From NCBI GenBank assembly GCA_965197905.1, contig CBDAOB010000005.1:2464001-2528000 (forward strand): a stretch of DNA of 64,000 nucleotides. The letters are read 5' to 3'. A model generated the notes under the pieces. It did no database searches. It saw nothing but the letters and a program-made list of their open reading frames with translations, and was not told the origin of the DNA. Within the stretch, counting starts at the first letter, position 1, and each line of letters starts with the position of its first letter. Positions 9,782-31,723 of the stretch are shown here, piece by piece. A program made the position numbers and the translations under genes. The stretch comes from Candidatus Latescibacterota bacterium. Its GTDB lineage: Bacteria; Latescibacterota; UBA2968; UBA8231.

Positions 9782-9793
9782 CCGCGACCTACC

Positions 9794-10573: not shown

Positions 10574-10579
10574 GCCGTT

Positions 10580-11412
10580 TCATTTCCTCCGGGGTGGTGT
10601 ATTACGGGGCGAATCACCGAGTTTGACGGCGTGCTCGAATAGTCCCTGCTTGCGGTCGTTGGCGATTCCGGAATCCTTCAACAGATCTTCGACGACCCGT
10701 TGCAACGCCTCGGCAGCAGGTGAAGGTGGTGAAGCCAGAACAAAGGGTGTTTGGCGCTTGATCGACTCGCGCACATACCGATCTAACGGAATATAACCCC
10801 AACTGTCAATTTTCGCTCCCAGAAACCGCTCCACCAGCTCCTGGAATCGCTCGTGAAGCCCCGTTGCCTCTTCGGCGCTATCTGCCATGTTAACCAAGAG
10901 TTTAGCTTGTAGATTCGGGTTGACGCCCAAGAGCAGCTTGAGCGTTGCATAAGCGTCGGCGATCGCGGTCGGCTCCGGCGTCACGATGAGCACCGTTTGG
11001 TCGGCAGCACTGGCCAGATCGACTGCCGTGGACGGAATGCCGGCACCGGTGTCGACTATCATGATCTCGTTGGACCGTTCCAGAGCTGTCAGCCGCCTGA
11101 GATTCCCTGGGTCGAGGGGTGCGCCGAAATCGCGCATACGATCGGAAGCGGCAGGCAGATCGTCAAGCCTTCCGGTCCGCTCAAACGCGCATCCTCGACG
11201 GTGCACTCACCCGCGAGCACATTTTCGAGGGTTTCTTCCGGACTTGCACCGAGCAGCAGAGCGATATTGCCCAATCCCAGGTCGCCATCGACCAACAGGG
11301 TGTTCTTGCGCATTCGGGCCAGCGAAACGGCGAGGTTCAGGGCAATGCAGCTCTTTCCGACGCCGCCCTTACCGCTGGTGATCGCGATGCTTCGGGGCAT
11401 TTGCACACTCAT
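10580..11412 (-). pseudogene. flhG: MinD-like flagellar number regulator FlhG, 1-bp frameshift near 11158
   Basis: SGKGGVGKS Walker A in 11412-11089; IVDTGAG, TPEPTAIADAY in the next frame. Restoring one C gives LTILPAASD. Confidence 0.88.
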
Positions 11413-12629: not shown

Positions 12630-14680
12630 ATTCGAGGGTTATGTTTCCGACGGAAGACACATCCACTTCCGGCACGATTTCGTTGTATGACAGGACGAAC
12701 AAACTCGGAAAATTAGCCGCCGTCAATTTGCGAAACGCCAGTCGAATCTGCGGTGATGCAAGCACCGCTGGCTGTTGCCCGTTGGCAACCATCTGGTCTA
12801 CCAGGCCGGTCATGCTCTGAAACAGCTGGCTGGCAACGTCCGGCGCGACGGCGACGGTCAGGCCTGTTGGCGTGGCCTGCACTGCCTCCTTTATCATTTC
12901 CTCCACCAGGGAGTCGATCGTGAGCACAGCTATGCCCTCGTCCGGCGACTCTTTCAACAACACGTTGCAGATCTGGCGTCGCAGCGCCGTGCGCACGTAT
13001 TCGGTGAGCACCTCGACGTCCTTGATCTCGCCATAATCTGCTAGCGTCTCGAGAATAGTTCGTAGATCGCGAATGGGAACGCGCTCGACCAAAAGGTTTT
13101 GCAGGACCCTTTGAACCTTGCCCAGCGGCATGATGTCGGGTATGAGCTCCTCGACGATGGCCGGGTGAGACTCCTTGAACTCATCCACCAGATGTTGCAC
13201 TTCCTGGCGCCCGAGCAACTCTCGCGCATGGGTATTCAAGACCTCGGTCAAGTGGGTAGCCAGCACGGCGACCGGCTCGACGACATTATACCCCAGGAGC
13301 TCTGCCTTCTCTCGAAGCGAAGGCACGACCCAGACGGCTGCGAGCCCGAACACCGGATCGGTGGTTTCCGAGCCTTCGATCGCATCCTCCGCGAAACCTG
13401 GGTTGATCGCCAACAGGTTCTTCGGCTGCAGCTCGCCCCGAGCGACAAGGTTGCCCTTCACGCGAATCTGGTATTCGGACGGCCCCAGCTCAGTACTGTC
13501 TCTAACCCGCACCTGGGGCGCGATGAATCCCATCTCCAAAGCAGCCACCTTGCGAATCTGGACGATGCGTTCGATCAGGTCGCCTCCCTGCTTGGCATCC
13601 ACCAGGGGCACGAGTTGGTAACCCACCTGGACCTCCAGCAGGTCGACCCGGAGGTAGTCTTCGGGACGTTCCTCAGGTTTTTCCTCTTCCTGGCGAACCT
13701 CCATTTCCATGGCCTTCCGTTGGGCATTGCTGCGGCGAACTAGAAGCGCCAGCCCCACAATCACCGATCCGATCAGCAAGAAGGGCCAGGTCGGCATGCC
13801 CGGGATGCAACCGAGACCGAACAACATGGCACCTGTGATCAATCCAGCCTGCGGTCGAGCCGTAAGCTGGCGATTGATGTCACGACCCATATTCTGGTCG
13901 GAAGAAGCCCGGGTAATAATGATGCCGGCCGAGGTAGAGGTGATCAGAGCTGGGATCTGCGTTACGAGACCGTCGCCAACTGTGAGCAGGGTATAGGTTT
14001 GGGCCGCGTCGGCGATGCTCATGCCGTGCTGCAAAATGCCGATGGCAAGCCCACCGATAATGTTTGATCAAGGTGATGAGAATGCCGGCGATCGCGTCAC
14101 CTCGCACGAATTTGCTGGCACCGTCCATGGAGCCGTAGAACTCCGCTTCCCGGGCAATATCTTCACGGCGTTTCCGCGCCGTCGTTTCGTCGATGAGTCC
14201 CGCATTCAGATCGGCATCGATCGCCATCTGCTTACCGGGCATGGCATCCAACGTGAAACGCGCCGCCACCTCGGCGACGCGGCCGGCGCCCTTCGTGATG
14301 ACGACGAACTGAATGATTATGACGATCACGAAGATGATAAACCCGAGAACGAAGTTGCCACTGACCACCACATCGCCGAATGCGGAGATGAGGCGACCGG
14401 CGTCGGCCTGACTGAGAATCAGACGGGTGGAGGCGACGTTCAGCGACAGTCGCGCCAGAGTGAGAATCAGCAGCAACCCGGGAAACACCGAGAATTCCAG
14501 CGGGGCGACAATGTATATGGTCATCATCAGGACGAGCAGCGCCACACTGATGTTACCCGTCAGCAAAAAATCCATGACATAGGTCGGCAACGGCACGATC
14601 ATCACTCCGAGAATGACGACTACGCCTACGGCCACCAGGACATCCGTGTGCCGCATCACCCTGCCAAAAAAACCGTTCAA
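12571..14680 (-). pseudogene. flhA: Flagellar export gate protein FlhA, +1 frameshift at 14063-14065
   Basis: [24 protein letters not shown] and [12 protein letters not shown], then a frame change; removing one A gives [11 protein letters not shown]...[15 protein letters not shown]. Confidence 0.93.
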
Positions 14681-14757
14681 ACCGTATTACCCCTATCGAT
14701 ATCTTCGATCATCTCAACGCACCGGCAATCCTCAAGAATCCGTGTTCCTTTTTGGTG

Positions 14758-15822: not shown

Positions 15823-15830
15823 TACGGCAC

Positions 15831-16598
15831 CTAGAAAAAGCCGATCAACGCAAACATGTTGCGTTCGAGCGTATCGAGTGACTTGTTCATCAGAATGAGA
15901 AACAGGGGCAGTGAGCTGACGAGTACGAGGGACCCCACGGTGATCTGCACGGGAAAACCGACGAGGAACACGTTCATCTGCGGTACGGTTCGCGCCAGAA
16001 CTCCCATGGCTACCGAGATCATCAGCAGAGAAATCATAACCGGCGCCGCGATTTTTAATGCGACGATGAAGATCTCGCTAGACAACGCGATCAGTTTGTG
16101 AATTATGATCTCAGGAAACTGAACCCCGCCCAATGGAACGACCTCAAAGCTGCTGATCAATCCCCGAATTATAAGCAGATGCCCATCAACTGTTAACACG
16201 ATCAAAATCGCCAGGATGCTCATGAACTGGCCAATGATGGAGACCTGCTCACTGGATTGGGGATCGACGACGTTGACGATGCCAAAACCCATTTGGAAAC
16301 CCATCATCTGACCGGCGAATTGAACGGCAACGAAGAACAACAACACGGAAAATCCGAGGATCAGACCCATGAATATCTCGCGGATGACCATGATGGCATA
16401 AGGCAGGAATCCGTCCGGAATGTGCAGGGATTCCGCGTCCACCATGGGAAAGACCACAAACGAGATGACGACTGCCAAACCAATCTTCGACCGCGCCAGG
16501 TAGTTGCGGTGGCCGAACAGTGGCGCCACGATGAGAAGAGCGCTTACGCGCAGAAGAATCAGTAGAAAGACGTGAAACTCGTTAAGCCAGTATTCCAC
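15831..16598 (-). CDS. fliR: Flagellar biosynthesis protein FliR
   Basis: AGQMMGFQMGFG, VDGHLL, RTVPQMNVFLVGFP. Confidence 0.95.
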   Translation of the reverse strand: MEYWLNEFHVFLLILLRVSALLIVAPLFGHRNYLARSKIGLAVVISFVVFPMVDAESLHIPDGFLPYAIMVIREIFMGLILGFSVLLFFVAVQFAGQMMGFQMGFGIVNVVDPQSSEQVSIIGQFMSILAILIVLTVDGHLLIIRGLISSFEVVPLGGVQFPEIIIHKLIALSSEIFIVALKIAAPVMISLLMISVAMGVLARTVPQMNVFLVGFPVQITVGSLVLVSSLPLFLILMNKSLDTLERNMFALIGFF

Positions 16599-16605
16599 TT
16601 TACGC

Positions 16606-16863
16606 TCACCCTACAACAGTTGGAATACTGCTCAGAATGCCGACGGTGAAATCGACCATTTTGCGAATCATCCACGGCAGCATGAACATAAGTACGGCGG
16701 CGACAGCCAGAATCTTGGGAATGAAGGTCAACGTCATCTCGTGGACCTGGGTTACCGCCTGGAAGATGCTGACAACGAGGGCTACGACCAACAGCGGGCC
16801 GGCGACATACAAGACGGTCATCAGTGCATGCTGACCGAGTTGGATGGCGTATTCAGGTGTCAT
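16606..16863 (-). CDS. fliQ: Flagellar biosynthesis protein FliQ (possible 4-aa in-frame deletion)
   Basis: SIFQAVTQVHEMTLTFIPK, LPWM. Confidence 0.93.
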   Translation of the reverse strand: MTPEYAIQLGQHALMTVLYVAGPLLVVALVVSIFQAVTQVHEMTLTFIPKILAVAAVLMFMLPWMIRKMVDFTVGILSSIPTVVG

Positions 16864-16879
16864 TGCCCGTCTCCCTGGT

Positions 16880-17674
16880 TCAGTTGAAGCTCCTCACGAC
16901 GGATTGAACGATTAGGTTCCAGCCGTCGACGAGCACGAAGAGCAAAATCTTGAATGGCAGCGAAACCATGATCGGGGGCAACATCATCATACCCATCGAA
17001 AGTAGAATACTGGCGACCACCAGATCGATCACGAGAAACGGTACGAAAAGGATGAATCCGATCTGAAACGCCGTCCTGAGCTCGCTGATAATGAAACTTG
17101 GAATCAACACGGAATTCGGAATTTCGCTGCGGGTTTTCGGTTGGGAGATTTTTGCCATGCGGATGAACAGAGCCATGTCCTTCTGGCGCGTCTGTTTCAT
17201 CATGAAATCACGCATCGGCTCCATGCCGCGATCCAGCGCCTCTTGATACGGTATTTCCTCGGCGATCAGGGGTTGAATGGCGTGATCGTTGACTTGGTCC
17301 CAAACCGGAGCCATTACGAAAAACGACAGGAACAGCGAGAGACCGATCAGGAGCTGATTCGGTGGCATCTGCTGAATTCCCAGGGCGGATCGGAGGAAGG
17401 ACAACACCACGAGTATCCGGGTGAACGAGGTCATCATGATCAGAATCGAAGGAGCCAGCGAGAGAATCGTCAGCAGGAAGATGATCTGCAGCGAGACGGC
17501 CGCATCTCCTCCCGATGCCGCCTCTTCCACCTGGAGGCTGATCTTCGGTAGTATTTGAGCTTCCAGCCCGGTGAACGGCGTACACAGAAACAGTATGCCC
17601 AGAGGCCAGATCCACCGTCGGTGCCGTGACCGCGACTCTTGGCGCCTGGGAGTGGCGGGATCAGGAATCGCCAT
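16880..17674 (-). CDS. fliP: Flagellar export protein FliP
   Basis: [43 protein letters not shown] at 17674. Confidence 0.95.
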
Positions 17675-18241
17675 TCTTGCCGCCTTCCGATCTGTTCTGC
17701 AGCTGCCCGAGTACGTTCTTGAACTGGCCGCCGAGCGAAATCTCGCCTTCCGGTGGCGAGTCAATTTCAATTCTCCCGGTTGCCATTGCCCCAACAGCGC
17801 GATTTGTGCCTCCGCGACCCCAACCGCAAGCGTATGTTCGCCAATGTCGACCAGATAGATCGCTTTCTTGGGACCCAGGAAAGCGCGCTCTTTGACGCGA
17901 ATACAACCGCTTCCGCCACCCAGTTGCTGCCCGAGCGAACTCTTTCGCAACAGGAATACGGCGCCCCACGCCAAGGCAATAACCGCGGTCAGACCCACAC
18001 CGAGCTTGAACATGAGACTCCAGTAGGAGTCCACCCCCTCGTCGGTGTCCGCCAGGTGCAATAGCGTTGAATCGTTCTTTAAGGAGTCGGAAGGTGCCGG
18101 AGTAACCTCGGCAACCGCTTCTGTGACTCCCGCCGGGGCGGTCGGCGCCTGCATGGTTGCTTCGCCCTGCGCCTGCAGGGGAAAAAACCAGAGGGCACAC
18201 GCGAAACCCGCTGGCAGCAAATGCCGACGTGATCGCTTCAT
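17661..18241 (-). pseudogene. fliO: Flagellar protein FliO; a 1-bp deletion near 17762 reads it into the fliP frame
   Basis: TM followed by [21 protein letters not shown]; the natural C-terminus [17 protein letters not shown]...NGDS* lies in another frame. Confidence 0.8.
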
Positions 18242-18298
18242 CTCGAGTGATTCCCTTTTTTGTCTCTGTGGTCTCTGAACCAACAAGGGACCCATCGA

Positions 18299-18313
18299 GC
18301 AACATATATGCCA
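18299..18313 (-). promoter_or_regulatory. sigma54 (-24/-12) promoter upstream of fliO
   Basis: TGGCATATATGTTGC: GG-N10-GC spacing, ~60 nt upstream of the fliO start, in an intergenic gap. Confidence 0.75.
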
Positions 18314-18483
18314 TGGAAAAAGAAAAAGAGCAGGCCTGTAAAGACCTGCTCCGGCGGAGCATTTTGGTATGGAAGAGAATCTAGAGTGGGAAAATAGTGC
18401 CCGGAAGAGGAAAATTCATCCGCTGGCAGCCGGAATCACGCAACTCCATTGGACTGCCCTGTCCCCACTCTATAAGTTATTGT

Positions 18484-19103
18484 TTATAATTGATTAATAG
18501 GCGTAACCAGCTCCGTGACCCGGACTCCGAAGTTCTCCGACACGGTGACCACCTCGCCGCGGGCGAAGAGGCGTCCGTTGACCAGGATATCCACGGGATC
18601 CCCCACCTGCTTGTCCAGCTCCACCAGCGATTGCTCGCCCATGTCGGTCACGTCTTCGAGGGTCTTTCGGGTTCGACCGAGCTCGATGGACACCATAAGA
18701 TTTACGTCCATGAGGCGTGCTACGTTGGGAGAAACTCCCGCACCGGCAACCATGGCGCCGCCTGCGTCGCCACCCATGCCACCCCCGGCTCTCCGCCCTC
18801 CTCCTCCATGGCTTTGAGCATTTCGGACTCCATCATGCGCTCCACATCCTCCTGGGAGCTCATGTCATCGCCACCGTCGGTCTCGTCCTCCATCATTCGC
18901 AGCATTTCCTCTGCGAGCGGATCGAGATCTCCGTCTTCGCCGGCCTCGCCGTCTTCGTCCCCGCCGCTTACAGCTTCCTCGAGGGCCTCCATTTCGTCGG
19001 CAACGTCTTCGCCACCCTCGTCACCATCCTCTTCTTCTTCGCTGGCCTCTTCCAGGGATTCTTCCAGGTCGTCGCCCTCATGTACTTCGTCTTCTTCGGC
19101 CAT
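18484..19103 (-). pseudogene. fliN: Flagellar motor switch FliN with long acidic N-terminus, frameshifted at ~18782-18795
   Basis: Acidic N-terminal part 19103-18790; SpoA domain LMDVNLMVSIELG...GEVVTVSENFGVRVT in the next frame. Confidence 0.85.
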
Positions 19104-19152
19104 GTCTATATCCTTCTGTGGGTCGCTAGGCTATCTGGCGTTGCCGCTTTTT

Positions 19153-20220
19153 CTAAACCGCGGGAACCGGACGGCTGCGATCCTTGTGCAATTCCTCGTT
19201 AGAGTGATCTACGTACCTGCTTATCTGGACCGCGTTCTTGCGTCCAACCCGACCCGGCCGGCCCAGGAACTTCGGCTCTTCGTTGACGTAGAGGACCGTC
19301 GGCTCATCGATCTCGGTGTCCAGGCGCATGACGTCGCCCACCTGAAGCTCCTGAAGTTCGCGAAACGTCGCTGAACCGCGGGCAAGTTCGGCCCTCAGGG
19401 GAACGTGGGTCTTGCGTAGGCGCGCGCGGTTCATCTGCACCAGCTCGTCTTTGTTCATGCGGTTCGTGCGCACGTAACTCTGTTGACCCAGCCGGGGAAG
19501 AATGGACTCCAGCGTGAAGAAGGGATAGCAGAGACTCACCAGGCCGGAGGCATTGGTGGAGTTCACCTCGAATGCCAAAAGAATGACGATTTCGCTTGCC
19601 GCGGTGATCTGCATGAATTCAGGATTGGTTTCCAGCTCAATATCGGTCACCTCTACTCGCAGAATCGGCTCCCAGGTCGCTTCAAGATCTTCGATGACAC
19701 GTTTGACGATGCGATGAATCACACCGACCTCGATCGGCGTCAGGGTTCGTGCCTCCACTCCCTGGGATGAGCCCTTTCCACCGAAGATCCGATCGACGAA
19801 AGCGAAGGTAACCGGCATGGCGAAATCGATGATCGCCTGACCATTGGTCGGCCCCAGGGTAAACTGGTAGGAACACGACGGGTTCGAGAGCGACATGATG
19901 AACTCGGCATACGTGGTCTGATCAACGAACGCCGTGTCCACATCCACCACCGCGCGCATGGCGCCGGAGAATGTCGAACTCAGCAACCGCGCGAAGTTGT
20001 CGTGCAGATTCTCCAGGGTGCGAAGCTGATCTTTGTTGACCCGCGCCGGATGTTTGAAGTCGTAGCTGGTGACTATGCGCTGCGACGCAGCCTCTTCTAG
20101 GCCGGCATCTCCGCCACCGCCACCACCCATCGCGTCACCACCACCTCCACCACCGGCGTCGTCTCCTTCGGTTGCCGAGAGCAGGGCATCTATTTCGTCC
20201 TGAGAGAGAATATCGGCCAT
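19153..20220 (-). CDS. fliM: Flagellar motor switch protein FliM
   Basis: ILSQDEIDALL CheY-binding peptide, YDFKHP, LCYP. Confidence 0.96.
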   Translation of the reverse strand: MADILSQDEIDALLSATEGDDAGGGGGGDAMGGGGGGDAGLEEAASQRIVTSYDFKHPARVNKDQLRTLENLHDNFARLLSSTFSGAMRAVVDVDTAFVDQTTYAEFIMSLSNPSCSYQFTLGPTNGQAIIDFAMPVTFAFVDRIFGGKGSSQGVEARTLTPIEVGVIHRIVKRVIEDLEATWEPILRVEVTDIELETNPEFMQITAASEIVILLAFEVNSTNASGLVSLCYPFFTLESILPRLGQQSYVRTNRMNKDELVQMNRARLRKTHVPLRAELARGSATFRELQELQVGDVMRLDTEIDEPTVLYVNEEPKFLGRPGRVGRKNAVQISRYVDHSNEELHKDRSRPVPAV

Positions 20221-20229
20221 AGTTCTACC

Positions 20230-20853
20230 CTATTGTATGATGATGCTAGAGAATTCCACCTGGTCGACGACAACCTGCACCTTGTTGGTGTCATCGATCT
20301 TGAACAGCTTCGAAAACAGATCCGTGTTCAGCTTCTTTTTTATCTCGTCCTTCACCTCGTCGACAAACCCGCTCTCCAGCTGATCGATCGTCTTGGAGCG
20401 AACGATGCTTATGGAGATCGCTCTGATCCGTTGGGTATACTGCGCGAGTTTGGTGTTAACCGGTTCGTTTTCCGCCAGGCCTCCAGTGATATCGTCGCCG
20501 CTTTCCGTATCGGTCGCCCGCAGCCCGAGTATGACGCTCAGGACCACGAATCGCTCGGCGTTGGTACCCGCCGGATTCGCGGGGATATCCATCAAATCCG
20601 GAGACTGGAAGTAGTACGGCAGCGCATTGTCGACGCTCTCGTCCAGTTGGCCGGCTGCAGCCTGTTCTTGAGGAAACAGCTCCTCCTGCTCGTCCTCTGG
20701 CGCATTGTCCTTTAGCGTTACCTGGATGACGACCCAGGCCAGCACCACTTGGGCCAGCAGGACGATCGCTGCCAGCGGGCCGTACTTTTTCAGGGCACTG
20801 CCGCCGCCTCCGCCGCCGCCTCCACCTTCTTCTTCTGCAGCTTCCTCAGCCAT
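20230..20853 (-). CDS. fliL: Flagellar basal-body-associated protein FliL
   Basis: N-terminal TM, ANPAGT..RF, C-terminal IIIQ; position between motB and fliM. Confidence 0.85.
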   Translation of the reverse strand: MAEEAAEEEGGGGGGGGGSALKKYGPLAAIVLLAQVVLAWVVIQVTLKDNAPEDEQEELFPQEQAAAGQLDESVDNALPYYFQSPDLMDIPANPAGTNAERFVVLSVILGLRATDTESGDDITGGLAENEPVNTKLAQYTQRIRAISISIVRSKTIDQLESGFVDEVKDEIKKKLNTDLFSKLFKIDDTNKVQVVVDQVEFSSIIIQ

Positions 20854-20877
20854 TCCGATGCCTTCCTTCCGATTGTA

Positions 20878-21657
20878 TCACTCTTCCCCTCGCACTCCCA
20901 GTTCTGCTTCCTGCAGGAATTTCTCCACGCCCTCCTTGGACACGTCCTCTTCGTCTTCGTCGAAGCGTATCTTGATCTCGACCCGGCGATTCTGCGATCT
21001 GTTTTCCGGCGGGTCGTTCTCTACCAACGGTTTGAACTGACCGTGCCCCACCGCCGACAAACGCCGCGGCTCGATGCCCACCTCACCGGCGAATACATCG
21101 AGCACCTGCAAGGCACGAGCGCTGGAGAGCCAGTGATTGTTGCCGAACTCATCGTTCGAGATCGGAACGTTGTCCGTGTGTCCCTCTATTTCGACGGCGT
21201 TTGGCATGCGGCTTATGACAGCACCGATGGTATTCAACAGCGGCAAAATCTCCGGCTTGAGATCGGCCTTTCCGGTATCGAACAACGCCTGGTCTCGTAT
21301 GCGAATGATGACCCCTTCCGGCCCCTGCATAACCTCTACATTTTCCTTTTGGTCCTGCGCTTCGATCTCCTGCTCAATCTCGGCTTGGGCATCCTTCATC
21401 GTCGGACGTGCTTCGGTGATATCGCCCCTGACGATCGGCACATGCATCTTGATCGGCGAGGTCATGATCGGCTCGCCCGCGAGCACGCCAAGAGCGCCCT
21501 GCAGGGCACCGATCGCCTTTTCAAAGTCTTCCTGCGACGTGGTCGAAAATGACAGCAATAGTACGAAAAAGGTCAGCAGCAACGACATGAGATCACTGAA
21601 CGTCGTGATCCATGCAGGCATTGACTTGCAATCAGGACACTTTTGCTGCTTTGCCAT
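20878..21657 (-). CDS. motB: Stator protein MotB (PomB/MotS-like)
   Basis: WITTFSDLMSLLLTFFVLL TM with the conserved Asp; OmpA-like domain EGHTDN...LSSARA...NRRVEI. Confidence 0.95.
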   Translation of the reverse strand: MAKQQKCPDCKSMPAWITTFSDLMSLLLTFFVLLLSFSTTSQEDFEKAIGALQGALGVLAGEPIMTSPIKMHVPIVRGDITEARPTMKDAQAEIEQEIEAQDQKENVEVMQGPEGVIIRIRDQALFDTGKADLKPEILPLLNTIGAVISRMPNAVEIEGHTDNVPISNDEFGNNHWLSSARALQVLDVFAGEVGIEPRRLSAVGHGQFKPLVENDPPENRSQNRRVEIKIRFDEDEEDVSKEGVEKFLQEAELGVRGEE

Positions 21658-21673
21658 GGCGTGAAACCGTCAG

Positions 21674-22458
21674 CTATTCGCCGCCTCCAGCCGCATCCTC
21701 ACCCGAGGGGCGCATCTTGGGAGCCAGGAACACGGAAAGCTTGTGCTCCACAATGCGCGGATTGTCGCCAGACTGTATGGCCATGATACCCTCGATGATC
21801 ATGCGTTTGGACAGGATTTCTTTCTTCGAATACGTACCCAGCTTCGCGGCAATCGGACCAAATAAGATGTTGGCCATGATGGCACCATACATCGTGGTCA
21901 GCAATGCAAGTGCAATGCAAGTGCCATGCCAGGACCGATAGCTGCGGGGTCGTCCATATTCTTGAGCATGATCACCAGCCCGACCAGGGTGCCTATCATT
22001 CCGAAGGCGGGGGCCGTGTCCGACATACGCGCGATGATATCCTGGCCCAGCTTATGCCGCTCTTCAATGAATTGGAGCTCGGTTTCGAGAATGTCCATGA
22101 TCAAATCCGGCTCGGTGCCGTCCACGGCGAGTCGTACCCCCTGGTTGAGGAACGCGTCATCCGCATCCTCCACCGCTTGCTCCAAGGCCAGGATTCCTTC
22201 CCGGCGCGCGGTCTCGGCAAATCCAACTATCTTCTCGATGAGCTCGGTCGGCACCGGGGTTTTGTTCATGATGGCGTTCATATAAACGCCTACCAGATTG
22301 ATCACCTCGGGCAACGGGTTGGCAATAAGCGTCGCAGCTATCGTTCCCCCGACGACGATCAGAATGGAGGGGACATCGATAAACGCCGACACGTCACCCA
22401 TGGCCACGACAATGAGGGTGAAGGCGGCAACGATTCCTATGATTGTTGCGATATCCAT
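21674..22458 (-). pseudogene. motA: Stator protein MotA, frameshifted by an 11-bp tandem duplication
   Basis: MDIATIIG, ARREGILALE, APAFGMIGTLVGL, GPGMALAL|LTTMYG. Confidence 0.93.
21901..21922. repeat. Perfect 11-bp tandem duplication (gcaatgcaagt x2)
   Basis: 21901-21911 is identical to 21912-21922. Confidence 0.95.
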
Positions 22459-22466
22459 AGTGTATT

Positions 22467-22676
22467 CTAGCTCTGTGAAGCCCCACTATACTGGGTCTGG
22501 TGGCACCGTTTGCGGTAATCTATGACCCGCTCGATCACCGTTTCCACCGGTTCGGTGACGGTGATCTTCTTGCCCGAGAGCAGTGTTATAATGGTATCGG
22601 GCACCGAATCGACGAACTCGATCATATCGGCGTTGATCACGAACTCGCTGTTATTGAGCCGCGTGAGTTTGATCAT
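22467..22676 (-). CDS. flbD: Flagellar protein FlbD
   Basis: MIKLTRLN...INADMIE...PDTIITL..GKK. Confidence 0.92.
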   Translation of the reverse strand: MIKLTRLNNSEFVINADMIEFVDSVPDTIITLLSGKKITVTEPVETVIERVIDYRKRCHQTQYSGASQS

Positions 22677-22719
22677 TATCCTGCTGGCCGGGAAAAACGA
22701 CTCGGCCCCTTTCCTATAA

Positions 22720-22748
22720 ATATCGGCCTAAATATCAATATCTACTGA
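22720..22748 (-). promoter_or_regulatory. Possible sigma28 promoter for flbD-motAB
   Basis: GCCGATAT -10 box (22727-22720) 44 nt upstream of flbD in an AT-rich gap; the -35 is weak. Confidence 0.45.
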
Positions 22749-22818
22749 ATATTATCATCGCCTGCGGGGATTTTCCCGGTCCCGACTAGAAAATCAGGCG
22801 TTACTCAAATATAACGAC

Positions 22819-24114
22819 CTACCGCTTCAAATTCACTAGCTCACTGAGTAGCTCGTCAGAGGTGGTGATGGTGCGAGCACTGGCTTGAAACCCGCGCTGA
22901 GAGAGAATCATATTGGTGAACTGCTCAGCCAGATCGACATTGGACAACTCTATCGCCCCCGAGTGAACACTGCCCTGAACCGTGCTTTCAGCGGCACCGG
23001 TTACGGCCTGACCCGAAGATTCGGTCTCGGTAAAAAGATTCTCGCCTTCGCGGCGCAGCCCTGCCGGGTTGCCGAAGGTGGCCAGGATCACCCTGCCCAA
23101 CTCCTCGGCGGTTCCGTTGCTGAACAAGCCAGTGATATTGCCATTGGACTGTATGTTCACGGATAACAGAGACCCCACCGAGCGGCCGTCCTGTTCCCGA
23201 ACCGACGCTGAGGACGGAGCGACGAACTGGGTGATCCCCCCAAGTCGATCGGTCCGATCTGCCACGATCTCGATCGCCAGGGGCGGGGCGCCGTTGGAGG
23301 GCGAGAAGCCGAGGGGTTGCCCGTCCGACGATACAAAGGTGCGCAGAGTGCCGTCATTGTTGAAGACGGCGCGACCATTGTTGCCCCGAGGCGGGTGTCA
23401 ATCCGTCGACGCTTGCCACCCAACTCCACTCATTATTGACGACACTGCGGGTAAAGGTCACGGTGAGCGAGTGGGATTCCCCCGTTTCATCGAAAACCTG
23501 GGTGTTGGTGCTGAACTCGAACGGGGGATCGCCACCAAATATCCCCGAGGTCGTAGCATCGGTAAGCCCATTGTCCAGCAGGGAGAAACTCACATCGAAC
23601 CCGGTGACGCGCGTCTGGCTGGCCCTCTCGGTGAGAATAATCTGACCGCTGCCTCCCGGATCGAGCGCCACATCAACCCCACCATAGACGTTACCCACCG
23701 CGGTGAACAGGTCGGCAAGGGTTGATGGTGGAGGACCATCGGTGTAGTTGAAGGTTCCGTCAAAACGCTCGCCGTTCGGCTTTACGCCGCTGATACGGAT
23801 GACATCGCCGCGGATGACGCTGGCGCCTGAGGTGACTGGAGGAGACAGGTCTTTGGCGACATTGGCCAGATCGTTTAGTTGATCGCCTACGGTGGCGTTA
23901 TCTCCGGTCGCGGCTGTATTTGTTGTAAACCCAAGGGAGCCAGCGACATTGTCGGGGGTTGCGTTATCCACCTGCACCGTGACGTTGGAACCTCCGGTCA
24001 CGGTCCGCAAGACCAATTGACCCAAATTGTTCGCCTGAAACAGCACCTTGTTCTTGAGGGCCCCGTTGGCATTGATAAGGGCGTTCATTTCTGCGACCAG
24101 CTCGAGTTGATCGG
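22819..24114 (-). CDS. flgE: Flagellar hook protein FlgE, exon 2 (with a +1 frameshift in the G4 run at 23384-23387)
   Basis: QVFDETGESHSLTVTF; after removing one G it reads SGNNGRAVFNNDG...; C-terminus ELSNVDLAEQFTNMILSQRGFQASARTITTSDELL. Confidence 0.9.
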
Positions 24115-24863
24115 GTAGGGTCGAGAACTGGCGCGCCAGCCTTAGGGTTCGGTGGGTTCCCCATGGCTTTCGCCATAGCCCTCAGTCCGACTCCCATCGC
24201 TACGTTTCCAGTTCCCGCCGCCTCAAACCGGACGTGCGGATCTCCCGCATCCGGCTTCCCGACGAACGTCACATCCAGGCACACGCCACAAGGACTTCAC
24301 CTGGTAGTCAAGCTGCTTCCGATGCATACTAGTCTTACTGCTGGAGGCAATAGGCTCACGCCACTCTCCAACCCTCTGCACTTCCGCAGCATGTCCGAAG
24401 TCAGGCCCCTTCCCTCCACCGGAGTTACCCGGCTTCCTCGGTACTACGCGCCTGTCCGCCACCTCATCCAGCCCAGTCTGGCCCTCGCGGGTTACCGGTT
24501 GGAGGCACTCGCTGCTTCCACCGGATGAGGCTTCCCGTGTTGCGCCACATCTCCTCTTACACACATGCTGTCGCCACTACCCCGGCGGAACAGCTGGGTG
24601 CGCTTGTCGCTCGACTTCCCCAGCTGCAGCGGCCTTCCCTGGTTTACGGGCAGGTCGGCTTCCGCATTACACTTTTCGAGGCCTGCTCAGCGTTTACTCA
24701 CGTTACGGCCTGTGTGCTCGCCAAGTCGCCCAAGGCGACCCTCTACACCGGAGGCTTCAGCGGCTTCGTCGCCTCCACCACTGCTCCGATTGCTACCGGC
24801 TGGAGCGACCCTTGCCGGGTGGGATTCGCACCCACTGAAGATGTGCGCCTTAGCACGGCGCAC
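24115..24863 (-). mobile_element. ORF-less group II intron (IIB-type ribozyme), 749 nt, inserted in flgE
   Basis: 5' GTGCG at 24863; 3' ...CTCGACCCTAC at 24115 with A at -7; domain V GAAGCCGGATGCGGGAGATCCGCACGTCCGGTTTG (24258-24224); domain III-like GTAGTACCGAGGAAGCCGGGTAACTCCGGTGGAGGGAAGGG; EBS1 CGTAAAC complementary to the exon end GTTTACG; no RT ORF. Confidence 0.95.
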
Positions 24864-25587
24864 CGTAAACTTTCGTGGGAATGTTTATCGTGCTCTCGCT
24901 TATTCTACCGCTGTCGTTGACGGTGATTTTCAGGCCGCCACTAGTATGTATGCTTAGATCGAGCGGAAAGGTGGGATTGGTGGTCGTCGTCAACCGCGCC
25001 GGCTTGCCGAAAACCGTGTTGGCGTTCCAGACCTTGCTGCCGCTGCCCTCAGCGCTGGCATCCAGATTTCCGGAGAGATTCACCTTGGCGGTGGCTTTGG
25101 CTTCCGACTCCCGGTCCAGTGGGATAATCAGATCCTCCAGCTCGGACTTGAAGGTGCCATCCTCATTGGCCACGTTGCCCTGAACAACCAGACCGGTACC
25201 GGGATCGTACAATCTGCCGGTGGCGTCGAATCCGAAGGTCCCGTCACGGGTGTAGAACCGATCCGGACCGGTTCCCATGATGAACATGCCGTCTCCTTCG
25301 ATCGCCAGGTCGGTCTCCACGCCCGTCGACTGGAGGGTCCCCTGGGTTACAATGGAGTCGATGCTACTCACCTTGACGCCGAGGCCGGATTGGATCGGAT
25401 TGGTCGCGGCCACCTGCCCCTGACCAGGTCCTCCTTCGCTGAGCGTCCTGCTCATGACATCGGCGAAATTGACGCGGCCCGCTTTGAAGGCGGTCGTGTT
25501 GATATTGGCCACGTTGTTGCCGATGACGTTGATTTTCGCTTGATGGGCGCGAACACCGGTGATTCCTGTAAAAATGGAGTCTAACAT
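24864..25587 (-). CDS. flgE: Flagellar hook protein FlgE, exon 1
   Basis: MLDSIFTGITG...IGNNVANINTTAFK, TDLAIEGDGMF, YTRDGTF, GNLD; RBS GAGGAG. Confidence 0.93.
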
Positions 25588-25737
25588 GCTAGCTACTCCT
25601 CATCCCAATTGGGTGGTTTGAAACCGCCCCTACCGTTCCTCGGGCGGCGGTTCCGATCCACTCACGACCCTCCTTGACCGATCTGTTGCCTGCTGGATGG
25701 TTCAATCTTGCTCGATTCATGTGTGACGTCTGTAACC

Positions 25738-26418
25738 TCAATTTTTCGGCGACGGCTGTACAATGCCGCTCAGTTCTTCGATTCTCAGTTCTCGTCCGTC
25801 CGCCCAGATCCTCGCTTCATTGCCAACGTAGCGCACCGCCTGGACGTCGACCCGCTTGAGTGCGTTTGCCTGCACCGGCTGGCCGCCGGAGGTCTCGGCG
25901 ATTACCAGCGCCCTATATGCACCCGCGGGCACCTCGCTGCCAGCGGTGCTCTTGCCGTCCCACTCCACCGTGCCGTAGGAGTCGGAGACATCGAGATCCA
26001 ACTCGCGCACGAGTGACCCGCGAGCATCTAGAATTCGCAAGCTTGCTTTGCTCGCCCCTTCGGCGATTCGATACGCCAGGTCATTAGCATCGTTGCCGTC
26101 GAACTCGATCTCCGCCGTGGCAATCTCGACGGTCTTTCCAACCAGAGACGTCACCAGGTTGTTCTGAAACGCATTGTGTAGTTGGGTCTCAGCTCCCAGG
26201 TTCTTTTCCAGTCCCGCGTTCATGTTCTGGAGCTGCTCTAGGGAGCTGAACTGCGCCATCTGGGCGATGAATTCGGTGTTCTCCATCGGATTCAGCGGAT
26301 CCTGATAACGCAACTGCACAGTGAGCAACTTGAGAAAATCGTCCTTGCCCAGCTGATCTCGCCCGACCACAGGTTGGGTCGCCGCCGGGCTCTTGTTCAA
26401 AATGCTGCTTACATCCAT
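25738..26418 (-). CDS. flgD: Hook capping protein FlgD
   Basis: LGKDDFLKLLTVQLRYQDPLNPMENTEFIAQMAQFSSLEQ; WDGK. Confidence 0.96.
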   Translation of the reverse strand: MDVSSILNKSPAATQPVVGRDQLGKDDFLKLLTVQLRYQDPLNPMENTEFIAQMAQFSSLEQLQNMNAGLEKNLGAETQLHNAFQNNLVTSLVGKTVEIATAEIEFDGNDANDLAYRIAEGASKASLRILDARGSLVRELDLDVSDSYGTVEWDGKSTAGSEVPAGAYRALVIAETSGGQPVQANALKRVDVQAVRYVGNEARIWADGRELRIEELSGIVQPSPKN

Positions 26419-26455
26419 TTCGACACCTCGTCAGATTTATTTGCGAATTCCATGG

Positions 26456-27538
26456 TCAAGCAAGAAGATCCAAGTCGCCGTTTCCAGCGCCGCGAACCAG
26501 GATTGGACTGCGCCTGTCCCTCTCAACGCCCTCCGCTGTGGCTTCCCGCGCACTCCCTCCGGAGAGATCGCCGCGAGTTTCCGAACCTTCTTCGCTGCGG
26601 GCAAACTGCCCTTCGCGACCTACACTGACGTCGAATCCTTCCATCGCCAGGCCTTGCTCTTCAAGCGACTCCCGCAGCTTATCCAGCTGCGCTTCGACCA
26701 GATGTTTCAGCTCTGAGTGCTGTACTACCACGTGACCGCGAACGGCTGATTCGGTAGTGCGCACCCGGAGCTCGATTTCACCCAGATCGGGCGGCTGGAG
26801 CTGCAGGCGCATCTCGGCGGCGCCGTTGCGAACCAGGGTCGCGATTCCCCGTGTAATCTGGGGCATGATAGTCTCCGCCAGCTCTTTCAACTGTGGGGCG
26901 CTGGCGGCGACCAACTGGCTCAGACGCGTCACGATCTGTCCCGGAGCTTTCTCGATGATCAGATCGGGATCCATAATCTCGTTGAAATCCAGCAACTCAA
27001 GCGGGTTCGGTTGGGGCCGCTGCAATGCCAGCTCGCCCGCCCCCCCTTCCTCCAGCTCGAAAGCCAGTTCCGTTGCCGCATCAGCCAGCAACCGGGCGGA
27101 CTCGCCCTGTTGCTCGTTCCCCTTGGGCGTGCTAACGATCAGAGCGGGATCGATTTTCTGAGCGGGCTGCTCGCCCTCGTTCTCGGGGTTCGCCTCCTCT
27201 GCCGCTACCGCGACTTGCAGCAGAGTAACCAGTGGCACATGACCTGACTCCGCATCCTCTGTGACCTCGGCGACCGCGTCTGCTTGCCCGTCATCACTTG
27301 GTTCGGCTGCGCCGTGCTCGTCGCGCTCAACAGCGACACCGGCGCGATCCTCCTGCGGGATGCGGTTGGTCGCCTTTGGATCGGCGTTGTCCCTTTCGGC
27401 GTGAAGATCCTGCTCTTCTTGTTCGCGCCGGAGAATCTCGTCGAAATCGAATGTGCCAACCCCATTTTGCCGGGACGGCTTGTCCAGCTCCTGAATTCCG
27501 GGCGCTACGGATGCCGCGGCTCCGAATATTTCGAACAT
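26456..27538 (-). CDS. fliK: Hook-length control protein FliK
   Basis: LQLQPPDLGEIELRV...LRESLEEQGL T3S4 domain. Confidence 0.9.
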   Translation of the reverse strand: MFEIFGAAASVAPGIQELDKPSRQNGVGTFDFDEILRREQEEQDLHAERDNADPKATNRIPQEDRAGVAVERDEHGAAEPSDDGQADAVAEVTEDAESGHVPLVTLLQVAVAAEEANPENEGEQPAQKIDPALIVSTPKGNEQQGESARLLADAATELAFELEEGGAGELALQRPQPNPLELLDFNEIMDPDLIIEKAPGQIVTRLSQLVAASAPQLKELAETIMPQITRGIATLVRNGAAEMRLQLQPPDLGEIELRVRTTESAVRGHVVVQHSELKHLVEAQLDKLRESLEEQGLAMEGFDVSVGREGQFARSEEGSETRGDLSGGSAREATAEGVERDRRSPILVRGAGNGDLDLLA

Positions 27539-27562
27539 CTATTTGCTCCTCAAACGTTTCAG

Positions 27563-28018
27563 CTATTCGCGTTCGTTCCGTCGACGCAGGTACAGCTGTG
27601 TGCCAACGTCGTCCAGCAGTCTCCGTTCCTGCCGCTTTTGTTCACGCTTGTAGGTTTCCTCCCTCTGCTCCCTCAGGATCTCGAACACGCGACGTTCCTT
27701 GGTCGCCTCCATCAAATCCTTCCGCTTCTCTTCAACCACTGATTCCACCTGTCGGATCTGCTCTTGTTTTTCGCCACATTCCCGTTTCAGCCGCTGCAGG
27801 TAGGATGCCTGCACATCGAGCAGGTTGGCGTTTACCGGAGCCGCCGGTTGGAAACGACCGGCCTGCAGACATCGCCTGCGTGTATCCTGCAGATCCCTGA
27901 GAGTCTCTTCTTCCCGATTGAGAACCGACACCACCTCTCCGAGGGCTGCTTTGCGAGCATCTTCCATGCGTCCCTTGATCTCCAGGACCCGCTGAAAGCG
28001 ATACGCGAACTGCCTCAT
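27563..28018 (-). CDS. fliJ: Flagellar export protein FliJ
   Basis: FAYRFQRVLEIK...EQKRQERRLLDD; follows fliI. Confidence 0.9.
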   Translation of the reverse strand: MRQFAYRFQRVLEIKGRMEDARKAALGEVVSVLNREEETLRDLQDTRRRCLQAGRFQPAAPVNANLLDVQASYLQRLKRECGEKQEQIRQVESVVEEKRKDLMEATKERRVFEILREQREETYKREQKRQERRLLDDVGTQLYLRRRNERE

Positions 28019-28025
28019 GAATCAA

Positions 28026-29354
28026 TCAAGCGACTTCCGCCTCGCCGCGCGGCTGGAGAAGACCCAGCAATTGCTGCACGTGCTGACCCATGTTCGATCC
28101 CGCATCAAGCCCCTGTCGCAAGAAATCGTTGATCGGATCTATAAACTCGAGCGCTCTGTCGATTTGCGGATTGCTGCCCCGCGCGTAAGCCCCGATGCTT
28201 ACGAGATCCTCCGCTTCCTGATACGCCGCCACGATCGACTTCACCTCCACTGCCTGCTCTATGTGCTCGGCGCTGGCCACGTCCCTCATGGCGCGGCTGA
28301 TACTCTCGCCGATGTCCACCGGCGGGTAGTGTCCTCTTGACGCCAGGCGTCGCGACAGCACAATGTGGCCGTCCAGCAGGGCGCGACTGGAATCGGCAAT
28401 CGGATCGTCGAGATCGTCTCCTTCGACGAGCACCGTGTAAAGCCCAGTGATGCTCCCCGTCTGGGTTGTACCGACTCGCTCCAGCAATTTCGGCAACATG
28501 GCGAAGACCGAGGGTGTATATCCCTTGGTAGTAGGAGGCTCTCCTGCCGCCAACCCGATCTCTCGCTGAGCCATCGCCATGCGTGTCAGTGAATCCATCA
28601 TCAACATTACGTCATTGCCGTCATCGCGGAAGTATTCGGCGATCGTCGTCGCCACCAGCGCCGCTTTTAGCCGGATCAGCGCCGGCTGATCCGAGGTGGC
28701 TACTACAACTACGGAGCGATTTAGGCCGTCTTCTCCGAGGCTGTCCTCGATAAATTCGATGACCTCCTTGCCGCGTTCCCCGACCAGGGCGATCACGTTG
28801 ACATCGGCTTCCGAATTACGGGCGATCATTCCCAGCAGGGTGCTCTTCCCGACACCGCTACCGGCGAAAATCCCCATACGTTGTCCCTTGCCCAGAGTCA
28901 TGAGACCGTCGATGGATCGGACTCCCGTGCCCAACGGTTCGCTCAAACGGCGGCGGCTCAACGGATCCGGTGATGGATTGTGCGCATTCCGGCGTTCCCT
29001 TGCATGTATCTGCCCTCGACCGTCCAGTGGGTTGCCCAGACCGTTGAGAATGCGCCCCCTCAACTCTCTGCCAACCGCGATCTGCAGTGGCGACCGCGTC
29101 GGAAACACAGCCGTTCCCGGCCGTATGCCTTCGATTTCTCCCAGCGGGGTCAAGAGGACGCGACTGCCATTGAACCCGACGACCTCCGCGCGGATGCCGC
29201 CTCGTGCCGGATCCCCCAAATAACAGAGCTCTCCGAGAGCCACATCTTCCGGGCCGACAGCCTCAACGATCAAGCCGACGATCTGCCTCACCTTGCCGTA
29301 GCGCGTGCGCGGATCGACCGTCTCTATGGTCTGCAGCAGCTCACTCGTGTTCAT
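28026..29354 (-). CDS. fliI: Flagellum-specific ATPase FliI
   Basis: GSGVGKST, LVGERGKEV, MMDSLTR, GEPPTTKGY, LDGHIVLSR. Confidence 0.97.
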   Translation of the reverse strand: MNTSELLQTIETVDPRTRYGKVRQIVGLIVEAVGPEDVALGELCYLGDPARGGIRAEVVGFNGSRVLLTPLGEIEGIRPGTAVFPTRSPLQIAVGRELRGRILNGLGNPLDGRGQIHARERRNAHNPSPDPLSRRRLSEPLGTGVRSIDGLMTLGKGQRMGIFAGSGVGKSTLLGMIARNSEADVNVIALVGERGKEVIEFIEDSLGEDGLNRSVVVVATSDQPALIRLKAALVATTIAEYFRDDGNDVMLMMDSLTRMAMAQREIGLAAGEPPTTKGYTPSVFAMLPKLLERVGTTQTGSITGLYTVLVEGDDLDDPIADSSRALLDGHIVLSRRLASRGHYPPVDIGESISRAMRDVASAEHIEQAVEVKSIVAAYQEAEDLVSIGAYARGSNPQIDRALEFIDPINDFLRQGLDAGSNMGQHVQQLLGLLQPRGEAEVA

Positions 29355-30126
29355 CCTCTTCGGCATCCTCTTTAGCTAGGGCGCCCTGTACGGCAGCCCT
29401 CAATACCTCGACCTGGCTTTCCAGCCGAGCGTCCAAGTTCTCTTCGTCGCCTTCGATCATGCACCCGCCGCGGGACACATGCTCGCTCGCCTGCACCTTG
29501 AAAACCGCGGTCGCCTCCACCTTCTCGACCCACCGCTGCGAAAACCTGCGCGCCAGCTGAAGGTCTTGTGGATGGACCTTGATCAACAGGTTGCTGTGAT
29601 CGCCCAGGTGGCCAAGTGCGTCTTTGATCACCGTTACGAGTACCCGGCGATCCACCTCCGCCTGGAGCCCCGTAATGCGATGAGCGAGAGCGCAGGTCAG
29701 TTCCAGCACTGCACCCTCCGAATCCGCAATCACCTGGGCCCGCTCGGCTTCCAGCGAGCGATGTAGAGCGTCCAGGCGTTCGATCGCTTCCCTAGCTTCG
29801 TCTTCCTTTGAGGTTACACCTTCCTGGTAACCTTCGTCGTACCGCTGCTGTCGGACTTCCTCCAGTTGTTGACGCCAGCGTTCTTCCGTCTCCTCTAATT
29901 CCTTTTTGGCTCCCTCCTTCAGGCTCTCCGTCTCTTGCCGGAGACGGTCTTCCCATTCCTTGGCAACTTCCTTGCGCGCCTTTTCCACCCGCTCGTCTAT
30001 CAGGGCAAAGAGGTTGATTCCGCGATCACCAGCCTCGTCCTCTTCCTCCCCGAACAGCTCGAATTCCCCAAAGTCAAGCGTTACGGCGGTCTCTGACAAG
30101 CGCCCGCTTCGAATAATCTTTGACAC
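29341..30126 (-). CDS. fliH: Flagellar assembly protein FliH
   Basis: EGYQEG repeat, KVHPQDL, RGGCMIE. Confidence 0.92.
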   Translation of the reverse strand: MSKIIRSGRLSETAVTLDFGEFELFGEEEDEAGDRGINLFALIDERVEKARKEVAKEWEDRLRQETESLKEGAKKELEETEERWRQQLEEVRQQRYDEGYQEGVTSKEDEAREAIERLDALHRSLEAERAQVIADSEGAVLELTCALAHRITGLQAEVDRRVLVTVIKDALGHLGDHSNLLIKVHPQDLQLARRFSQRWVEKVEATAVFKVQASEHVSRGGCMIEGDEENLDARLESQVEVLRAAVQGALAKEDAEEDEHE

Positions 30127-30198
30127 GTCCTTGTTTCCCCGCTTTGAGTGAAGTGCGTTGCCGTCAAGTATACCAAATTGCAGACGGGCGACGCACCA

Positions 30199-31723
30199 CT
30201 AACCTCCGCCTTCCTCCATGAGCATTGTGCGGACCAGCTTCGCCGCGTCTTCCGGACGCTCCCGTACCATTCCCTGGATGCGGCTCAACAGCAACTCGTG
30301 CGGCGTCTCGGGTCGTTCGAACTCTTCCTCTTCGACGTCGTCATCGACGACACCCATCATCTCCACCTCTTCCTCGACTCCGACGCCGCGACCGATGGCC
30401 TGGATGATGAAACGCAGGGTGATGAGCGCCGCAATGATACCAAGAATCTTTGCCACGTTTATGGCGATGTCGGTCCAGAAATCGGCGGTCTGTTCCTGTT
30501 CGGCCTCTTCCTTGGCTCTGATTTCCTGGGTTTTGTCGAATTCCATCGCGAAGACCGTCATCTTGTCGCCCCGGCCCTCGTCATATCCGATCGCTTCCTT
30601 GGCCAGCGCCGCCAGCTGGTCGATCTCCTCCAGCTTCCTCGCTTCCTCAACGTAGTCCCGGGTCTCAGGATCGAGCACTACTTTTGTCTTGTCGACGGTC
30701 AGTGCCATTGAAATCCGATCGATGCTGCCGACGGAGCCGATTACGTTTTGTAGCGTGCGGTTGACTTCGTAGTTCCGTACGGCCTGCTCTTCCGAACCCT
30801 GTTCCGCGGAGCTCTTTTCGTTGGTTTCCTCACTGATGATCACCTGTTGCGTGCCCGGCTCCACCAGGGTGCGTTGGGTATTCTTCTGGCTGAAATCGAG
30901 GACGACATTGATGCGCACCCGGGACCGATCCTTGCCGATCACCTGGTCCATCAAGGTCTGGACCTTCTTTTCGAGGGCCCGTTCCACCTGTTGCTTGAGT
31001 TGAAACTGCTTGTTGGCGACTTGTGCCAGCGGGTCGCGCTCGTCGGAGAGGAGATTGCCCTCGTTGTCGACGATGACCACGTTCTCGAAATCGAGTCCTT
31101 CGACGCTTGCGCTTATGAGGTAGGCAATGGCATTGACCTGTTTGGTCTTGAGTCGCGTTTCGCCCTGAAGGGTGAGCGCCACCGATGCGGTGACCGGATT
31201 CTGCTCTTCCACGAACAGACTGGGCTCGGGGATTACCAGATGTACGCGAACGTCGCCGACCCCCTCGATCTCGTTGAGCGTCGACTCCAGCTCCTGCTGC
31301 AAGGCCCTTTGGAAATTGACCTTTTGCAGAAAATCGGTCATGGCCAGCTGGGCTTCGTCGAAAATCTCGAACCCCATGCGACCCGTTCTGGGGAATCCTT
31401 CCCCTGCCAGCTGAAGACGCAGATCGCGGACCTCGTCGTCCGGCACCAGAATGGCGCTGGCATCGGTTGTCAGCTTGTGGCGAATGCCGAGCTCGGCCAG
31501 ACGGTTGCTGATCTGGGCGGCTTCCTTGAATTCCAGATTGGCGTACAGAATGGCGCCGTCCCAGTCATCGTCTGCCCCGCCAAAGGAGAGAAATCCAACG
31601 ACGACGCCGACTATTAGAACTGCCACGCCACCCATGACACCGTAACGCTGTACCTGGCTGGCTTCGCCCCACATCGCGCGGGGTCCGCTCGGCTACATTT
31701 GTAATACCTTCAGGAAGATTCAT
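30199..31723 (-). CDS. fliF: MS-ring protein FliF; probable true start ATG 31723 with a +1 frameshift in the C4 run (31680-31683)
   Basis: LYANL, GFEIFD, RALQQELESTL, VHLVIPE..SLF, RNYEV; ATG 31723 is 49 nt upstream of the ORF ATG at 31674. Confidence 0.9.

Follow-up and report, generated by a model that had tools for sequence, protein, structure and literature searches.

An ORF-less group II intron interrupts flgE

The window, meaning the whole 64,000-nt stretch of DNA that was analysed, comes from a genome (G000) of 6.69 Mb in five contigs, C1 to C5, estimated as 91% complete. The hook gene flgE in its flagellar cluster is split by a 749-nt insert. The parts of gene and insert, given in window coordinates, are as follows.

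24115..24863, minus strand: 749-nt ORF-less group II intron that recognises its exons in IIB fashion; the genome has 12 full copies
24864..25587, minus strand: flgE 5' exon, 724 nt, phase-1 junction
22819..24114, minus strand: flgE 3' exon, 1296 nt, itself frameshifted
23384..23392, minus strand: flgE frameshift of one extra base, placement approximate, also found in an intron-less allele
24698..24837, minus strand: 5' part of domain I, the covariance-model match to Rfam group-II-D1D4-4
24259..24404, minus strand: compact domain IV in which about the first 22 codons of an RT ORF survive as a decayed remnant, a type shared with ORF-less introns of family f4
24224..24257, minus strand: domain V (intron 607-640), AGC triad at 24254-24256 and AC bulge
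24115..24221, minus strand: extended domain VI as folded, branch A bulged at -7 (24121)

The original prediction, made from the sequence of the window, described a 749-nt insert with group II intron ends, an AGC triad and AC bulge, and an A at -7; all were recovered in place. The termini, 5' GUGCG and 3' AC, are the same in 12 copies with differing flanks. Proposed searches with covariance models divided: Rfam group-II-D1D4-4 (RF02003) scores 106.8 bits, far above its gathering threshold of 49, whereas Intron_gpII (RF00029) scores 39.2 bits (E 6.6e-6) against a threshold of 40, falling 0.8 bit short because the long domain VI costs score. The minimum free energy fold of the whole intron shows no extra stability over shuffled sequences (z -1.33). 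The case for an intron is made by the covariance models together with covariation at the exon-binding sites. The longest sense frame without a stop is 117 aa, so the intron holds no RT ORF, in keeping with the prediction. Pairings EBS1/IBS1, EBS2/IBS2 and a single-base EBS3/IBS3 place it in subgroup IIB, EBS2 being the weaker and sliding in register. The insert is genuinely a group II intron, ORF-less and mobile, and of the TeI3-like kind already known; its variant features are a likeness to class F, targeting of the attC top strand, and a mosaic history.

The exons join as ...TKVYADQLELVAEMNAL..., in frame, and to that extent the predicted exact restoration of the frame stands, but the joined frame still ends after 494 aa. 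The 672-aa FlgE that had been proposed (724 + 1296 nt) has the right length provided that the extra base near 23384-23392 is omitted. Perfect splicing would yield a 494-aa hook protein lacking the C-terminal Flg_bbr_C domain. Any precisely inserted group II intron is expected to restore the frame exactly, and for that reason the restoration is not evidence of function. Comparison with relatives, also suggested at the outset, found flgE uninterrupted in 19 other genomes with fetched loci, the matched part being free of stops. In G002, which belongs to the same genus and is assembled as one contig, the query used did not find flgE. The flgD and flgE of the relative G001 are continuous in a single 865-aa open frame, through either a fusion or a lost stop (L060:4590-7184).

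Copies of the intron and their host genes

A search of the genome for sister copies and for an RT-encoding relative, as had been recommended, returned 12 full copies and one sister intron with an RT/maturase. The full copies are 99.7-100% identical (nine identical, two at 99.87%, one at 99.73%), with the flgE copy 100% identical to eight others. A 13th copy is truncated at nt 700 (C3:359767-360466); the 79 bases upstream of it are identical to those ahead of the copy at C2:7475, a hint that a cassette end was duplicated or that a rearrangement took place.

Four copies lie within genes, each in the sense orientation of its host: flgE, nuoH, a gene that we take to be FG-GAP-like, and an ankyrin-repeat gene, the last labelled from its sequence rather than by a library hit. 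The frameshift in nuoH is upstream of the intron, and that in the FG-GAP-like gene is 36 codons past it. With flgE, three of the four host genes thus carry another frameshift, compared with a background of 24 of 414 orthologues broken elsewhere, 13 of them by frameshift, in 39 stretches of G001 (binomial p 0.0007; p 0.012 at an assumed background of 15%). The nuo operon is itself decaying (C1:55000-80000), with frameshifts in nuoH and in two further genes whose G001 counterparts have 458 and 589 aa.

These counts suggest that insertions last mainly where they are costless, as is proposed for Thermosynechococcus elongatus in the accessible text of PMC2882425. Insertion into a live gene has nevertheless been tolerated at least once. 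The ankyrin-repeat gene at C3:919022 is otherwise intact, with 420 + 250 = 670 codons as in G002 (gene and copy span C3:917827-920523, or L159:2828-5523), and could be the best candidate in this genome for splicing that matters to the host.

Exon recognition

Every exon position was scanned for covariation against every intron column in 62 introns, namely the window copy and those 61, out of 80 related loci, in which a 5' end was found. The rows are related, so the counts are not independent, yet the pairings co-change in many combinations. Intron positions 216-222 are complementary to exon positions -1 to -7 in 48, 48, 54, 54, 55, 34 and 31 of the 62 introns (expected 17-24). Positions 192-195 pair with a site that slides between exon -15 and -10. 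EBS3 was scored in a set of 35; both intron ends were found in 34 of the 80 related loci. The resulting elements at flgE are listed here.

24642..24648, minus strand: EBS1 CGUAAAC, intron 216-222, in a hairpin loop; the same letters make up the L' box in several of the local attC sites
24669..24672, minus strand: EBS2 core GUGU, intron 192-195, from covariation
24577, minus strand: EBS3 (G287), which pairs with exon +1, by four pair types, in 30 introns out of 35 against an expectation of 11.4
24864..24870, minus strand: IBS1 GTTTACG, 7/7 pairs with EBS1
24875..24878, minus strand: IBS2 CCAC (-15 to -12), 3/4 pairs in a shifted register, without the TA present upstream at 10/13 sites
24114, minus strand: IBS3 C, paired with EBS3

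The copies have a target rule in common, T-A-A-C-A-C ... GTTTACG before the insertion point and C after it, read by EBS2, EBS1 and EBS3 respectively; the copy at C2:7999 makes 6/7 of the IBS1 pairs. Among 122 empty sites that read GTTTACG followed by C, 21 have an IBS2 score matching that of flgE, and the rule is therefore incomplete.

Integron attC sites as the main target

Five of the 13 copies split a full integron attC site right after its L'' box, and a further three come after an R''-L'' half. All of these lie on the cassette strand. For this attC-reading family, flgE is a side target. Same-strand frames end just upstream of the insertion sites. Empty attC sites mostly pair poorly, 19 of 22 at 5.5 or fewer of the seven IBS1 positions. 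One empty attC scores 7/3/1, from which it follows that targets are not saturated. A full integron integrase is encoded at C3:204281 (367 bits). Large cassette arrays occupy C2:1-36000 and C3:290000-365000, and a truncated integrase-like ORF occurs at C2:37267.

When the attC model of this genome was applied to related introns, 3 of 32 lay at attC, all in the closest sub-lineage and two from one record; the nhmmer model, built from 15 sites, favours short attC and may overlook the attC of other genomes. It also missed the attC at C2:33951, which was recovered by box complementarity.

Insertion into integron attC sites recalls the group IIC-attC introns of the S.ma.I2 lineage. As those are described in the portions of PMC7923331 and PMC4424553 available, they enter the bottom strand, opposite to the cassettes, and have an EBS1 of 3-4 bp, no EBS2 and a CGC triad. 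The flgE intron family instead enters the top strand after L'', and the attC model hits empty sites on the strand that the intron occupies; its RNA has a 7-nt EBS1, an EBS2 and an AGC triad. Closer in type are the cassette-array introns UHB.I2 (IIB1/CL1) and H.ha.F1/F2 (class E) of Sonbol and Siam 2021 (excerpts of PMC7923331), which likewise are IIB introns within cassette arrays, UHB.I2 being in cassette orientation. According to the same excerpts, UHB.I2 is a single case that lies just downstream of attC and encodes a CL1 protein; here, by contrast, several copies split attC after L'', with R'' and L'' read by base pairing. Cassette excision could be affected by a IIB-type intron that recognises attC boxes on the cassette strand through RNA-DNA pairing, and such an intron could itself be a small natural targeting vector.

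The sense strand of the intron is the locally G-rich strand in 13/13 copies, which represent only about eight independent regions and in which local GC skew may track gene orientation. This bias fits the lagging-template bias reported for En-minus introns such as RmInt1 (PMC4075523, accessible text).

A second, different ORF-less group II intron extends from C3:348603 to about 349430 (L166). It has another domain I, and its domains V-VI are 85% similar; it apparently occupies the same spot in another attC and has its own matching EBS1.

An RT-encoding sister intron and probable mobilisation in trans

The sister intron (C3:1187174-1189158) is 1985 nt long and carries a 441-aa ORF with matches to TIGR04416 (323 bits, cut-off 300), RVT_1 and GIIM and with a YADD motif; the domain search found no endonuclease domain in it. 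The closest relatives of the protein, at 82-83% identity, are in a Latescibacterota record, and the host is thus probably a member of that phylum. Identity is 47-48% to g3 (47% to Ni.ha.I1, 48% to an A. caldus g3 fragment), 33% to g2 and 30% to g1, the references compared being from g1-g3 only. The RNA is 70% identical to Ni.ha.I1 over 366 nt.

Compared with the sister, the ORF-less intron is 99.6-100% identical over the first 225 nt, 84.2% over the next segment and 88.4% over the last 149 nt. Beyond the first 225 nt it is nearer to an intron of genome G020, at about 87.7% in the middle and 93.2-93.8% at the 3' end. The genome has 13 RT loci belonging to three families. No real RNA similarity was detected between the sister and the other two families, and their best class references differ. 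One of the others, at L002-L012, comprises 11 intron copies whose 557-aa RT comes closest to g1 within the set of references used; the copy at L004:940-2610 splits a transposase gene that is presumably IS256-like.

One ORF-less copy and the sister form a head-to-tail tandem with no exon between them (C3:1186425-1189158, L001). The 5' exon of the sister is now the end of the ORF-less copy, without a match to IBS1, and consequently the sister should splice only after the upstream copy has been removed. IBS3 is mismatched at that upstream copy. Most simply read, the ORF-less intron made renewed use of the same IBS1 ahead of its helper, which may be impaired today.

The original prediction of a non-autonomous intron with a trans-acting maturase to draw on gains from the 12 copies and from a sister identical in the first 225 nt. 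Judging from these sequence relationships, the 441-aa protein probably supports splicing and retrohoming of the ORF-less intron in trans, at replication forks. The protein would bind the ORF-less RNA and aid lariat splicing, and the resulting particle would reverse-splice into single-stranded DNA at the fork with the nascent lagging strand as primer. Its main targets would be integron attC sites, whose cassette (top) strand would be cut directly behind the L'' box, while flgE would have presented a perfect IBS1 and IBS3 by chance.

Spread by self-splicing together with some other RT, such as the 557-aa RT with its 11 copies or a sister since lost, is an unlikely alternative to this role for the 441-aa protein, though the tandem may block splicing of the sister, the ORF-less RNA outside its first 225 nt resembles the G020 intron more than the resident sister, and the assembly is 91% complete. 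Against it, the remaining RTs belong to other lineages at loci without RNA similarity, and identity of the first 225 nt with the resident sister points to recent contact. We prefer the 441-aa protein as helper.

Decay of the flagellar cluster and the order of events

Compared with four relatives, flgE is joined by flhA, motA, fliN, fliO and a MinD-like gene beside flhF in being frameshifted. From its position next to flhF, we take the MinD-like gene to be flhG/fleN.

14060..14066, minus strand: flhA frameshift, in the only copy found in the genome
21914..21925, minus strand: motA frameshift by an 11-nt duplication, lacking in an X2 contig and retained in an X1 contig
18740..18790, minus strand: fliN frameshift, in common with X2, missing in X1 and X5
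17755..17762, minus strand: fliO frameshift, which could be private to the assembly
11150..11160, minus strand: frameshift in the MinD-like gene beside flhF

Frameshifts affect 4 of 24 genes of the cluster against 13 of 414 in the background (Fisher p 0.010), a count that omits fliO and fliN and for which 29 overlapping-locus rows were de-duplicated by hand. In the flgF/flgG region, 0 of 11 orthologues are broken. A histidine kinase gene adjoining the cluster has an internal stop relative to G001 (window ~8445, C5:2472445 region). No fliG lies between fliF and fliH in the interval 30126-30199 of the window, or between these two genes in the relatives compared. Open frames persist in ten flagellin-domain loci (C5:1962804-2007322, C5:2453910 and three loci on C4) despite the broken export gate gene.

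Logan contigs from 4 of 23 listed public runs (X1, X2, X5 and X7) were compared with window positions 9000-28900; no RNA run was listed among those with the locus, a result without bearing on expression. In X2, a contig of 1935 nt omits exactly the 749 nt of the intron, joining 23327-24114 to 24864-26010 with two substitutions and no gaps, and this intron-less allele carries the flgE frameshift. Even cover of 30/30 bins suggests that X2 is a DNA run. In X1, a 9.6-kb contig with three gap letters retains the flhA, motA and flgE breaks. The X1 contigs enter the two ends of the intron by 28 and 22 nt, which, under the proposed check for reads spanning both junctions, lends the intron ends weak support, as both lengths fall below the 31-letter bridging rule. 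X5 and X7 are more distant strains with flgE uninterrupted by the intron, and flhA is intact in X5; neither X1 nor X2 contigs have a deletion that would repair flhA. X1 and X2 come from different studies, but X1 may be the source sample, which leaves X2 as the one independent run, and contigs lose rare alleles. That the flgE break is an assembly error was rejected on the strength of the frameshift in the intron-less X2 contig; the fliO break may still be one. Copies of repeated mobile elements have 0-5 gap letters per 2-3.6 kb, a figure that does not separate error from variation.

The breaks in fliN, motA and probably fliO vary among strains, and those in flgE and flhA are more widely shared than the intron. 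Because the intron-less X2 allele carries the same break, the flgE break is older than the intron: flgE was already dead when the intron arrived, and the insertion is that of a selfish element in a pseudogene, an ordinary event. This order could be reversed if the X2 allele lost the intron precisely.

An intron that arrived first and inactivated flgE by poor splicing, with decay of the operon to follow, is very unlikely. The IBS2 at flgE is indeed weak (3/4, shifted, without TA), and breaks polymorphic among strains point to recent decay; however, the flgE copy is 100% identical to eight others, and the intron-less allele has the flgE and flhA frameshifts but no intron.

Still less probable, and by our estimate scarcely credible, is a functional flgE whose other break is an assembly error and whose hook synthesis depends on splicing, the consequence that the original prediction had drawn. 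It would account for an intron sense to the gene with 7/7 IBS1 pairs and a paired IBS3, for the intact appearance of the flagellin-domain loci and the flgF/flgG region, and for the absence of the fliO, fliN and motA breaks from some runs. Yet the flgE frameshift recurs in X1 and X2 contigs from different studies (X1 with the reservation above), one of them intron-less; the single flhA is broken and no deletion mends it in X1 or X2, while X5 has an intact form; and splicing yields only 494 aa. Splicing-dependent hook synthesis is accordingly not supported.

We regard the flgE insertion, with high confidence, as a recent copy of a non-autonomous and actively spreading IIB intron with class-F-like kin, with the sister as helper, attC sites as targets and a dead flgE as a side site. 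With equal confidence we attribute its persistence there to neutrality: the copy would persist since the gene was already dead, and splicing there would no longer matter to the host.

Relation to known group II introns

The best-known parallel is in T. elongatus, where ORF-less TeI3 introns move with the help of TeI4 proteins (Mohr et al. 2010, PMC2882425, accessible text). As with TeI3, there are many ORF-less copies at EBS-matching sites and a related IEP in the genome. According to that text, the TeI proteins carry an endonuclease domain, whereas the helper here lacks one and is class-F-like; the TeI introns belong to one genome, with ORF-less families as clades, whereas the domain IV described below spans genomes of two families on differing scaffolds; and trans-mobilisation was demonstrated for TeI, while for the flgE intron family we infer it.

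Class F, or group g3, introns such as Ni.ha.I1 are described by Toro and Martinez-Abarca 2013 (PMC3552965, in part). Like g3, the present family has IIB RNA, a complete form of about 1.9-2.0 kb and an RT-X protein of about 440 aa without an endonuclease. It differs from the Ni.ha.I1 type, as far as the excerpts describe it, in that the flgE intron is ORF-less and its EBS are directed at attC; the group was set against g1-g3 references only. The flgE intron does not resemble the domesticated, splicing-only type (organellar introns, C.te.I1): its host gene is otherwise broken, the insertion is absent in relatives, and the genome holds a sister IEP and 12 near-identical copies. Our literature search found no report of a flagellar gene with a group II intron, nor any paper on this group of hosts. 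Group II introns without an ORF are, in bacteria, treated in reviews as rare, short-lived derivatives of a local intron (PMC4424553, accessible portion).

Domain IV in two families of the class

A query spanning domain IV was searched in 168 genomes. It gave an unbroken match in 11 of the 22 genomes of family f4, at 71-78% identity and often in multiple copies, and, besides the source genome, in no other genome of family f1, out of 75. Complete f4 ORF-less introns are 730-942 nt long with no long frame. The domain IV motif is present in 16/16 distinct ORF-less rows and in a second, 761-nt ORF-less intron in L126, and in 0/51 RT-encoding rows. In a tree of the first 118 nt of domain IV, 17 ORF-less rows fall on one side of a branch (SH-aLRT 99); this is a quick tree of 120 columns in which the row of the source genome is a long branch. 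In the adjacent ribozyme segment the ORF-less rows are dispersed among those of RT-encoding introns, and the test rejects one clade for them (AU p 0.0086, from 36 of 73 rows). Domain IV of the source genome is 75.7% identical to f4 ORF-less introns against 68.7% for the best RT-encoding intron. Its predicted fold has modest support, with two-sided change in 7 of 42 pairs.

These patterns make it an even call whether one old deletion gave rise to a domain IV that has since recombined onto several scaffolds. Under such scaffold swapping, the module would recombine onto the scaffold of a resident autonomous intron (domain I with its EBSs, and domains V-VI) and so would gain that intron's protein fit and target; the latest swap in the source genome would have supplied the resident intron's attC-reading 5' end. 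We hold evenly balanced, too, the broader proposal that the compact ORF-less domain IV marks an old, single-origin, SINE-like parasite of class-F introns, present in at least two families of the class and repeatedly recombined. Alternative sources of the same pattern are an unsampled RT-encoding lineage with the same domain IV, or long-branch attraction of decayed sequences. Our literature search, for which most subscription papers were out of reach, found no non-autonomous or mosaic ORF-less intron lineage. The occurrence of this domain IV in 11 of 22 f4 genomes and in the source genome suggests lasting non-autonomous lineages that RT-based surveys miss, and such lineages are relevant to the question of how introns came to depend on shared splicing factors.

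A lone match to domains V-VI occurs at C5:668275-668349 (55.6 bits); neither an RT nor a similar 5' part was found close by. In the loops of the ORF-less relatives at L072 and L078 (G056) there are several short insertions with inverted repeats (GCCTGCCTG...CAGGCAGGC), and one of these relatives has lost domains II-III.
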